Of a DNA stretch of 32,000 nt, positions 22,873 to 25,800 are shown piece by piece. The position numbers and the translations under genes are program-made. The DNA lies in contig CAZPUN010000004.1 in the NCBI GenBank assembly GCA_964589775.1, forward strand, positions 9,737 through 41,736. The letters run 5' to 3'. How positions within the stretch are numbered: position 1 is the stretch's first letter; the number at the start of each line of letters is the position of its first letter. This stretch comes from an uncultured archaeon (GTDB taxonomy: Archaea > Asgardarchaeota > Thorarchaeia > Thorarchaeales > CAZPUN01). The notes beneath the pieces were generated by a model, which was not told where the DNA came from, ran no database searches, and worked only from the letters and a program-made list of their open reading frames with translations.

Positions 22873-25800
22873 TATTCAGCCCCCAGTTTCTTTGCTAATT
22901 TTCTAAACTCTTTTATTGCCTTATCCAGTCCCTTTAGAAGATCTCCAATGATTTCCATTCGCTCTAGCAGGTCTAAGTCTTCTCTCTTTGCAACTTCTTC
23001 AATTAGTTTTGAACTAGCTATCAAAGTGTTTGTTTTATTATCAACTTCATTTACAATATCTACATGTAGTTCAGGAATCGTCATTCGTTTTCCGCGTCTC
23101 TTTCTAGATATTAATAATGATAAAATGAGGAAGCCAAATGTTCCAAATACACCTATTATTGATTGCATTACAAGTACCATTCGGGGTATTCCTTGCTCTT
23201 CACTAGGTGTTTTACTCGCCTGATAATACGTAAATGATGTACTAGCAAACGTGCCTGTGTAATTTTCAGATGGAAATATTATCAGAATTGCATGTATAGT
23301 CCCTGTATCTTCCCAGAACATATGCATAAATACAGTAGAATAATGTCCGTTGCCTAGATCACCAACAAGGAAAAATCTTAGAGATCCATTTGGTAATCTA
23401 AAGCCGACGAAAATTTCAAGACCTTCTACGGGTACGCCTTTTTGGTTTGTTATGTTTGCAACCATGTATACATCTTTTCCTTGTTCAAAAAGGCTGCTAT
23501 CGCTTCCCGTTATTGTAAATTCAACATTTAAGCTATCATTCAAAATGTTTTGTGCGATGTTTTCTAATAACTGACGGTCGCAGTACTTATCAATATTAAT
23601 ATTATCAAATGCATCGGCAGTTCCTACAAGTATTACTCGTGGATGTATTATATGGATCAACACTGGCAGTCCATCTGAAGTTATCTGTGAATATATTTGT
23701 GTTCCATATATGTATGCGCCGTTGCTAATGTATAATGAAGAAACATTTGTCGTTAGGTCTCCATTGGAAATCTCTGTAGTATTTGTTGCATTAATCGTAC
23801 CCGCAAAAGTGTAATTATACATTTGTGCAATTGAATTTAATGCGGTTTGATTTGTATCGTCTTTACCATTTGACATCAGTATGAGTCGTTTTCCATTATC
23901 TGTCATGTTCTTAAATATTTCTAATTCGTTTTGTGTAAATCCTTTTTCAGGGTCTTGAATTATCATGCCATCGAAGTTTCTTAATAATGATGCATTGTAT
24001 TCTTCGATTTGTGGTATTTCGATTAAACTAATATTTTTCTCCGCGAACACTTTTGCGAACTCAGTAAAGCCTATGTATATACTATCGCTGGTTTCCTTAT
24101 ATGCATCAAGTATGCTATTTAAATCTGTGATATTGCTTAATGAAATATTTCCGGACATAAGCCCTGAATTGTGTGCTGAGTCAAATACCAGCATGGCTTT
24201 GGGATATTTTAGATCTAATTCTACAGGAACTTTAATGTAACCGCCTCTACTGCTTGTAAATGTTATATTACCCCTATGTATTCCGTCTGCTTCTATGCTT
24301 GGAATGAATATTACAATCGAAGCTGTTAGATAATCTTGTGTATTCTCTTTGCTTTCTAATGTAATATTTACCCAATCTTTAATATCGCCCTCTACGTTTG
24401 CTGTGATATTACCCAAAGGAATTGATGTTGTTAATACTAAAGAATACATACCGAAATTACTTACGAATTCCAAACTCATAGGTGCATACGGTAATTTAGA
24501 TGGAAATACCGATACTGTTGGGATATTGCGAATTACAAATATATCTCTAATCAGATAATCATCCATATTTACTAAGTTTGATTGTAACAATGTGGTTTGG
24601 GTGGGTATTCCGATTGTATTTCCTACAATCCACGATATTGTATATGTACCATATTTTTCAGGTATCCATTCTCCTGATAAACTCTTGAACTCATATTGCT
24701 TCATATTTGAGTATGTAAAATATTTTAAAAATGCAGTTCCAGTATCGCCGTTTGGTTTTGCAATCACCATGGCTGCATATGCGTCTGAACTACCAAATCC
24801 TATGTTTAGAATAATTGCAGATGATCTATATATACCAATTCCTTTTTGTACTCTGTAGATGTTTGGTGCAACAACTGTAAAATCTGGAGAATTCATTATT
24901 TGTTGTGATGGTTTTAAGGTCCAAATTTCTCTTATGCTCTTATCCATACTATTCTTATCAATTCCAATTCCTAAAGCGATTGAAACGTTTGTTGCACCCT
25001 TTGGATTCAGTTGTCCCAAATTCCATTTGATTCCTGCTCCTGTTGAGCCATCATAATGTAATCCTTGGTGAAATTCATCGTTCATAACATGCGAAATCAC
25101 ATCTGTTGAATTTCCTAATTCATAATTTGTGAATGGTGTGCTAGAATTTAGCCCTATGTATGTATCTCGACCCATATCATCAAAACCATATACGAAAATG
25201 GTGTTTGTTGAATCGTCTAATCGTATATGGTCGTCTTTAGAATCCATATAAACATCAAACATCCAACTTGATAATAATGAAATGTTCTCTGTCGTTGTGC
25301 TGTTTAAGTTAATTATTGAAAATGTAATTTTGAATGCGTTTATGTCTGATGTATAAGTTGTATTATAACTCTCAATCATTGGTATTACAATTAGTCCATC
25401 TTTATAAAGAACTGAAACAGTACGTGTATATGAATTGATTGTGTTATCCATCATATATGCATAATGCATTTCTTTTAATGCTTTAAATTGAAATAGTGAT
25501 ATTGGGTCATTTTTGCCTATTTTTATGTAAAACATTCCGAATGCTAAATGAATATCTACACTTGTTTTTTCTGTTGTGTTACGCAAGAGTGCCACTGATG
25601 TTCCATATGTAGATTCCAAAAGATATGTGTCTTGTGTATTTCCATCACTCGGCGTGAATCCCAAATAGATTAATCCGGGTGTAACCGTTCTGACTTCACG
25701 TGTTTTATATGCATGGGTTAAAAGGTAATCATATGCTGCTGATACATTAATTAGTCCTGCTCCTGCCATATTTGGGCCATATCCTATATCTGTTGCAGTC

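Follow-up and report, generated by a model that had tools for sequence, protein, structure and literature searches.

A predicted pseudo-subtilase of Asgard archaea with the domain order of site-1 protease, encoded within an ABC-2 transporter gene cluster

We analysed a stretch of 32,000 nucleotides from an uncultured archaeon of the Thorarchaeales (contig CAZPUN010000004.1, positions 9,737 to 41,736 of the forward strand; the whole stretch is hereafter the window), in which a single open frame of 1395 codons with a GTG start (window 22872-27059, minus strand) encodes a protein that joins a peptidase S8 domain to a GIFT domain, here named the S8-GIFT protein. Its domain order is: signal anchor, propeptide similar to that of the subtilase Tk-SP, S8 domain, all-beta insert of ~385 amino acid residues (aa), immunoglobulin (Ig)-like domain, GIFT domain, stalk sandwich, transmembrane (TM) helix and a basic tail that is read as helical. 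We consider it likely that this protein shares the body plan of site-1 protease (S1P, MBTPS1 or SKI-1), that it is homologous to a family of compact Asgard S8-GIFT proteins with an intact catalytic triad, and that it represents a derived, catalytically dead and enlarged paralogue of these, tied to an ABC-2 transporter as an extracytoplasmic accessory subunit.

The resemblance to S1P is clearest at the level of predicted structure. Two AlphaFold models were obtained, one covering aa 100-1299 (42 sequences, no templates; mean pLDDT 84.8, pTM 0.86) and a second one covering only the Ig-like and GIFT domains (aa 835-1180; pLDDT 84.9). When the full model was compared with the PDB by Foldseek, the S1P-SPRING structures 8uw8_A and 9csd_A occupied ranks 1 and 2 (8uw8_A with E 1.6e-26 and a TM-score, relative to the target, of 0.57), with Tk-SP, Vpr and subtilisins behind them at about 1e-21. 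In the VIA alignment of the full model, 586 of 738 S1P residues were paired (model 20-1077 to chain 190-874, root-mean-square deviation (rmsd) 5.1 Å, Z 41.4), while subtilisins aligned over ~271 residues only, at a similar Z. The Ig+GIFT model likewise retrieved S1P first (E 1e-14 and 2.5e-14), ahead of IFT52 (5e-9) and, much later, Wbp1 (3.5e-5); a Foldseek comparison of this C-terminal region had been proposed in an earlier note on this DNA, and its outcome agrees with the relationship to S1P suggested there. Aligned by VIA, this model and S1P share 307 residues (model 11-342 to 8uw8_A 478-874, Z 18.5). Residues 476-616 of S1P form its P-like subdomain and residues 617-998 its GIFT subdomain (PMC11231238), and, since the aligned segment 478-874 spans both, the Ig-like beta-sandwich of the window protein (aa ~835-954; 24198..24557, minus strand) corresponds to the P-like subdomain. 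In the predicted model this sandwich and the GIFT domain are packed on the S8 domain as they are in S1P, and, among the solved proteins retrieved by Foldseek from the PDB with both models, no other combines S8, sandwich and GIFT domains.

Like S1P (PDB 8UW8, 9CSD), the window protein is of type I and combines a propeptide, an S8 domain, a P-like sandwich and a GIFT domain with a single TM helix and basic residues next to the membrane. The order of S8, Ig-like, GIFT, TM and basic tail that the earlier note had compared with S1P holds, but a stalk domain has to be added to it, and the tail consists of a basic stretch followed by ~70 conserved residues. The peptides quoted there are all present in the translation of window 22872-27059 (minus strand), and the span to which they were assigned, 23100-24520, corresponds to aa 847-1320 and contains the Ig-like domain, the GIFT domain, a further beta-sandwich and the TM helix. 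Differences from S1P are also clear: S1P is an active, autoprocessing protease, whereas the window protein lacks the His, Asn and Ser; it has in addition the ~385-aa insert between the S8 and Ig-like domains, the stalk sandwich and a ~70-aa tail whose helical character is a reading of the sequence; its GIFT domain is compact (~220 aa, compared with 617-998 in S1P); and its gene, unlike that of S1P, sits in an ABC-transporter operon.

The GIFT domain itself (aa ~955-1177; 23529..24197, minus strand), with a GATase1-like alpha/beta fold, was recognised by Pfam, by the family profile, by VIA and by Foldseek. In the C-terminal piece of the window copy, ABC_transp_aux, DUF4350 and IFT52_GIFT all fall on one stretch (E 0.01-0.03); among 26 aligned members of the family, IFT52_GIFT was matched by 25 (best E 7e-11), and ABC_transp_aux and DUF4350 by 22 each (best E for ABC_transp_aux 8.9e-10). 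The family C-terminal profile, compared with PDB sequences, retrieved the solved IFT52 GIFT domains at E 6e-8, in an alignment that covers the FDGMIIQDPEKGF...LILMS motif region. An exhaustive VIA comparison of the Ig+GIFT model placed the mouse IFT52 GIFT domain first (Z 22.2, rmsd 2.2 Å, 192 residues), followed by S1P (Z 18.5), OST48 (Z 18.2) and Wbp1 (Z 16.4), with GATase1 and ThuA-like proteins at Z 12-16. The GIFT/GldG/IFT52-like assignment of the earlier note is in this way borne out, and, by both the profile and the fold tests for the GIFT superfamily, the domain is more than a chance match. The N-terminal GIFT domain of IFT52 (PDB 5FMS, 5FMR, 8BD7) is its closest single-domain match, which covers aa ~955-1177 only; IFT52 is, unlike the window protein, a cytoplasmic subunit of cilium transport that has neither a protease domain nor a membrane anchor. 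A GATase-type enzymatic role was also considered for the GIFT domain and set aside: its only Cys (C1160) lies in the last-helix motif and is aligned to a Glu in IFT52.

The link to S1P in sequence is provided by a paralogue. On another contig of the same genome (L111:1428-4250:-; G000:C3:1431-4250) we identified a gene for a compact S8-Ig-GIFT-TM protein of 940 aa, composed of a signal anchor, a propeptide, an S8 domain (165-439), a beta domain, a DUF4350/ABC_transp_aux region (600-773), a TM helix and a short tail, in which the catalytic motifs DTG, HGT, AAGNSG and GTSAA are intact. The residues D-H-N-S are kept in all 18 full-length relatives retrieved and in 19 of 19 members of this intact-triad family, which has full-length relatives across the phylum, in records named Thor-, Loki-, Heimdall-, Hod- and Hermodarchaeota. 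In databases these compact proteins, too, go by the name 'S8 family serine peptidase'. BLASTP aligned the S8 domains of the window protein and the paralogue with 30% identity (E 2e-37), and also paired window aa 856-1061 with paralogue residues 476-659, collinearly and skipping the insert.

For profile comparisons we distinguish A1 (the family of the window protein, read as dead), A3 (the C-terminus of that family), A5 (Ig+GIFT of the intact-triad family) and A6 (the intact-triad family at full length). By hhalign, A3 and A5 matched across the Ig-like and GIFT domains (probability 99.7%, E 3e-26, 302 columns). Compared with the PDB, A5 retrieved IFT52 (3e-18) and S1P (8uw8_A/8uwc_A, E 3e-11; profile 24-311 to S1P 504-853), and A6 aligned to S1P in a single stretch through the S8, P-like and GIFT parts (profile 128-745 to 193-855, 245 bits). 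In sequence, the window protein is thus linked to S1P by what appears to be a significant but transitive relationship, via the intact-triad Asgard family, since the profiles of the window family do not themselves reach S1P. The window family and the compact family share the domain order and homologous Ig and GIFT domains, and both are nearest to Tk-SP among solved structures; the compact family differs in having kept D-H-N-S, in lacking the insert, in its short tail and in a family profile that reaches S1P directly. As far as alignments can tell, the window family is a derived pseudoenzyme sister of the compact intact-triad family, and the 940-aa paralogue is a better counterpart of S1P than the window protein. 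No ABC genes were found among the immediate neighbours of the paralogue that were examined in this genome. The opposite-strand frame that precedes it (L111:3-1028:+, at the contig start and partial) showed a weak match to the OST48 middle domain (E 0.018, below the cut-off), which may be due to chance, and had no sequence match in the PDB.

Several observations weigh against the relationship to S1P. Searched against the PDB, the full-length profile of the window family did not have S1P among its top 60 matches, and its C-terminal profile reached neither S1P nor OST48 among PDB sequences (E<=10); Pfam MBTPS1_4th does not match the window protein and is touched by 2 of 26 members only, at E about 1e-3. 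The three-domain packing is taken from an AlphaFold model and not from a solved structure, and the VIA Z for S1P is no higher than that for S8-only matches. In both Asgard families the best solved relative of the S8 domain is Tk-SP (402 bits for the intact-triad family, 265 bits for the window family), and BPN'-type subtilisins (~260 and 169 bits, respectively) also stand above the S8 part of S1P, which gives only ~200 of the 245 bits obtained for the intact-triad family. The GIFT domain, taken alone, is closer to IFT52 than to S1P.

Both in sequence (265 bits) and by VIA (Z 43-46), the propeptide and S8 domain of the window protein are matched best by Tk-SP (Thermococcus kodakarensis; PDB 3AFG, 9UES). 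The pro-region (aa ~26-125; 26685..26984, minus strand) is homologous to the Tk-SP propeptide, with the family profile at 53-469 aligned to ProN-Tk-SP 3afg_A 27-418 through propeptide and S8 domain, and VIA identities of the window model are 35-36% to subtilisins and Tk-SP, compared with 21% to S1P overall. Tk-SP is, unlike the window protein, catalytically active; the alignment with its solved chains, of 427-539 residues, extends over the S8 domain and one beta domain only, and the enzyme is presumably secreted, with no GIFT domain or TM anchor.

These rankings would also fit a convergent assembly, in which the combination of subtilase, beta-sandwich and GIFT domain arose independently in Asgard archaea and in eukaryotes, with no shared ancestor of that build: in both Asgard families Tk-SP is the top-scoring match of the S8 domain, and BPN' outscores the S8 part of S1P; the GIFT domain is nearer to IFT52 than to S1P both by profile (6e-8 as opposed to no match) and by structure (Z 22.2 as opposed to 18.5); Tk-SP already has a beta domain after S8, the VIA alignment running to model residue 845, inside the Ig-like domain; and several other GIFT proteins in the genome might have served for recruitment. 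Nevertheless, we regard such a convergence as unlikely, as a single collinear hidden Markov model alignment, ~620 profile positions long, connects S1P with the intact-triad Asgard family over three domains, the Ig+GIFT pair of that family on its own matches the P-like and GIFT parts of S1P (E 3e-11), the three domains are predicted to be placed in space as they are in S1P, and the Foldseek searches returned no other solved protein with this domain combination.

The window protein does not appear to be an S1P orthologue. Its description in the earlier note as an archaeal S1P-related protein stands as regards the first rank of S1P in Foldseek and the transitive sequence link, and has to be qualified as regards catalysis, which appears to be lost, and the lack of a direct profile match to S1P. 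Whether the three-domain build of S1P and that of the Asgard proteins go back to a shared ancestor we regard as evenly balanced. The wider scenario, in which the body plan of S1P, with its S8, P-like, GIFT and TM parts, would have been inherited from Asgard archaea, one lineage remaining intact and another, dead, being recruited as an outer GldG-like subunit of an ABC-2 system, is put forward here only tentatively, and we hold it with some doubt.

The transporter part of our proposal is based on gene context. The S8-GIFT gene belongs to a conserved cluster, all on the minus strand, which starts with an ABC-2 permease of 387 aa (28699..29862; ABC2_membrane_3, E 1.6e-24) and continues with an ABC ATPase of 547 aa that carries an N-terminal TrmB-like region (27043..28686; Pfam ABC_tran and Regulator_TrmB, DrrA/GldA-like by NCBIfam) and overlaps the start of the S8-GIFT gene by 17 nucleotides. 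Downstream of the S8-GIFT gene come a second ABC ATPase of 325 aa (21895..22872; Pfam ABC_tran), whose start overlaps the S8-GIFT stop by 1 nucleotide, and a 2196-aa calcium-repeat protein. This second ATPase is DrrA/GldA-like (NCBIfam drrA 209 bits, GldA 154 bits, both under the cut-off), and follows the S8-GIFT gene in each of the first 12 loci. Of the four Asgard families in which the gene occurs, three (f2, f12 and f19) have retained its linkage to ABC genes: the order permease, ATPase-TrmB, S8-GIFT and ATPase of the window is found again in f12, and in f19 the three transporter genes are divergent but adjoin the S8-GIFT gene. An S1P-related build placed in an ABC locus, as the earlier note had proposed, is in this respect supported.

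Proteins of the ABC_transp_aux/GldG type are described by Pfam as auxiliary parts of ABC systems. A GldG-type auxiliary component would be expected in just such a gene arrangement, and the Pfam family of these components (ABC_transp_aux, PF09822) belongs to the GIFT group; for this family the window protein scores 15.1 bits, below the gathering cut-off of 34.7. GldG, from the GldAFG system, has a GIFT-type extracytoplasmic domain and hydrophobic segments at both ends, as has the window protein, and its gene likewise adjoins an ABC-2 permease and DrrA/GldA-like ATPases. The window system differs from it in ATPases that score below the GldA equivalog cut-off and in an archaeal host with no gliding apparatus. 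We take it that GldG contains neither S8 nor Ig domains.

The gene could instead encode a free-standing surface glycoprotein, an adhesin or envelope scaffold, for which proximity to ABC genes would be a convenience of co-expression and not a sign of physical partnership. The f7 family speaks for this and against an accessory subunit, as its loci (L040, L041 and L044) encode full-length relatives of the S8-GIFT protein but neither an ABC permease nor an ABC ATPase within 10 kb of them, and so do the signal anchor and TM helix that the protein has of its own, its many sequons and its beta-sandwich modules, which are typical of surface proteins. We judge it improbable in view of the overlapping gene junctions (17 and 1 nucleotides), the adjacency that survives rearrangement in f19, the conserved cytoplasmic tail of ~70 aa, which suggests an intracellular partner, and the Pfam description of GIFT-type proteins (ABC_transp_aux, GldG) as auxiliary ABC parts.

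The S8 domain (aa ~126-449; 25713..26684, minus strand; Pfam Peptidase_S8, E 7e-43), beyond which nothing was above threshold in Pfam and NCBIfam scans of the whole window protein, has a subtilisin fold (VIA Z 42-46 to Tk-SP and subtilisins, rmsd 1.8-5 Å). In the alignment with the intact-triad paralogue, the catalytic Asp is kept (D147), and the His, Asn and Ser positions are occupied by R190, D284 and A389, respectively. Among the 33 family members in which the region is present, the replacement of Asn by Asp is universal, the nucleophile (Ser) column reads A/T/S/V/F/G, and the His is kept in most and is Arg, Pro or Glu in some. The window protein does not have the working Asp-His-Ser triad and oxyanion Asn of the S1P family. 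Since neither the oxyanion Asn nor the Ser nucleophile is retained, and this copy has lost the His as well, the S8 domain is predicted to be unable to cut, and we read the protein as a pseudoenzyme and not as an active protease.

That it might still be a working protease with an unusual active site, for instance with the nearly invariant Thr388 as nucleophile, seems to us hardly credible: Asp147 is kept, the His is kept in most orthologues and Ser or Thr stands at the nucleophile position in a few members, but Asp takes the place of the oxyanion Asn throughout the family, the nucleophile position is freely variable, the window copy has additionally exchanged His for Arg, and the conservation of Thr388 is uninformative on catalysis, since the same Thr precedes the nucleophile in the active paralogue (GTS motif) and is conserved in ordinary subtilases too.

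A comparable case is offered by the clostridial pseudo-subtilases CspC and CspA, in which the S8 fold is retained without a working triad; the window protein weakly matches NCBIfam CspC_non_triad (E 3.6e-11, far under the cut-off). CspC and CspA are, unlike the window protein, soluble proteins of spore germination with no GIFT domain and no ABC link, and they lost their activity independently. In the S8 domain of the window protein we also noticed an inserted Gly/Asn-rich loop, of low pLDDT and read as disordered (aa ~347-372; window 25944-26021), which lies after the APG strand and before the residue that replaces the nucleophile, and in the place of which the intact-triad paralogue has a shorter, different loop.

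We hypothesize that the S8-GIFT protein acts as an extracytoplasmic accessory subunit of the surrounding ABC-2 transporter, analogous to GldG in GldAFG. In a protease that does not cut, the propeptide may stay uncleaved and fill the substrate groove, and this dead groove, possibly with the propeptide still in it, would act together with the GIFT domain as a binding or scaffold surface. The cytoplasmic tail would couple the protein to the ATPases, and the cargo of the transporter may be the neighbouring giant adhesin. What the analysis shows is the topology, the folds, the loss of the catalytic residues, the homology to the intact-triad family, the match to S1P and the synteny; non-catalytic binding and a physical association with the transporter and its cargo are inferred.

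S1P starts the signalling cuts of SREBP and ATF6 in eukaryotes, and in the literature searched we found no publication that discusses its origin or that links Asgard archaea with S1P or with GIFT domains. The window locus and the intact-triad paralogue show that an ectodomain with all three domains is present across Asgard archaea, so that an archaeal origin of S1P can be tested with phylogenies and structures. The ABC-coupled version, which appears to be dead, would be a conserved pseudoenzyme to whose family the databases give the name of an active enzyme, 'S8 family serine peptidase', and it may show the role of GIFT domains in ABC systems such as GldAFG. If the build of S1P was inherited from Asgard archaea, a single locus would join the protease-associated and the ABC-associated uses of the GIFT domain, and a prokaryotic model would be at hand for how a GIFT domain supports or gates an S8 active site.

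The two ends of the protein deserve a closer description. A hydropathy scan placed an N-terminal hydrophobic signal or anchor directly after the GTG start (aa 1-25; 26985..27059, minus strand). The gene calls in databases begin at residue 21 (Met; window 26997-27059), by which the N-terminal signal anchor is lost. Since the orthologues all begin with a hydrophobic segment, as the window protein does, the GTG at 27059 appears to be the better reading of the start. The same scan gave a single C-terminal TM helix (aa 1294-1318; 23106..23180, minus strand), followed by a cytoplasmic tail (aa 1319-1395; 22875..23105, minus strand) that, from the sequence and the orthologue consensus, consists of the basic stretch RKRRGKR and then ~70 conserved residues, whose pattern suggests helices. 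The protein contains 31 N-X-S/T sequons, 30 of which precede the TM helix, and is probably a heavily N-glycosylated type-I surface membrane protein.

The all-beta insert (aa ~450-834; 24558..25712, minus strand) was modelled as strands only, except for three short helices, with pLDDT mostly at 80-94. The S8 fold ends at aa ~449 and the Ig-like domain starts at aa ~835, in agreement with the ~380 extra residues that had been noted between them; the insert is absent from S1P and from the compact paralogue, and the collinear BLASTP alignment with P0129 skips it. It has no match to a Pfam family, and an Atlas search gave weak CARDB/NPCBM_assoc leads only (scores 0.87-0.88). The membrane-proximal beta-sandwich, or stalk (aa ~1178-1285; 23205..23528, minus strand), is formed by model strands 1079-1180 (pLDDT 82-95) and has no counterpart in the aligned part of S1P, the alignment with which stops at model residue 1077.

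The window family is conserved in Thorarchaeota and in several further Asgard lineages. Of 41 related genomes, 39 contain the C-terminal part of the protein, with ~30% identity and in frames whose length is nearly fixed (~1460 aa). When the whole phylum was searched, full-length relatives (1414-1496 aa) were found in four families, in 41 of 44 cases in f2, 16 of 19 in f12, five of five in f7 and six of six in f19, and outside these four families the search returned isolated GIFT-domain matches only. Candidatus Thorarchaeota or Promethearchaeota is the label of the closest relatives, and one relative of 1553 aa is labelled Hodarchaeales. An exhaustive phmmer search yielded 36 relatives, with no S1P among the matches; the S8-bearing ones whose names were checked are all from Asgard archaea, and the more distant matches are plain GIFT proteins without an S8 domain. 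A word-indexed protein search with the C-terminus retrieved only two near-identical proteins, and a pattern scan of genome contigs found close relatives only, mostly labelled Thorarchaeota. When A3 and A5 were compared with a large protein collection, no record was named eukaryotic or bacterial; those with names were from Asgard archaea, and many rows were nameless. Given the word pre-filter, this is weak evidence of absence.

Further GIFT proteins are encoded elsewhere in this genome. A protein of 459 aa (L033:1480-2859:+; G000:C23) matches IFT52_GIFT with 86.7 bits (E 1.7e-24) from residue 8 onwards, and we take it to resemble eukaryotic IFT52 in size and in having its GIFT domain at the N-terminus. 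Two other genes, L034:1-2037:- (G000:C27; at least 679 aa) and L036:1396-2481:+ (G000:C13; 361 aa), encode GIFT proteins without an S8 domain; one of these two genes adjoins a gene for a Zn-dependent phospholipase C-like protein, and the other lies between the genes for a CDP-archaeol synthase and a GTPase.

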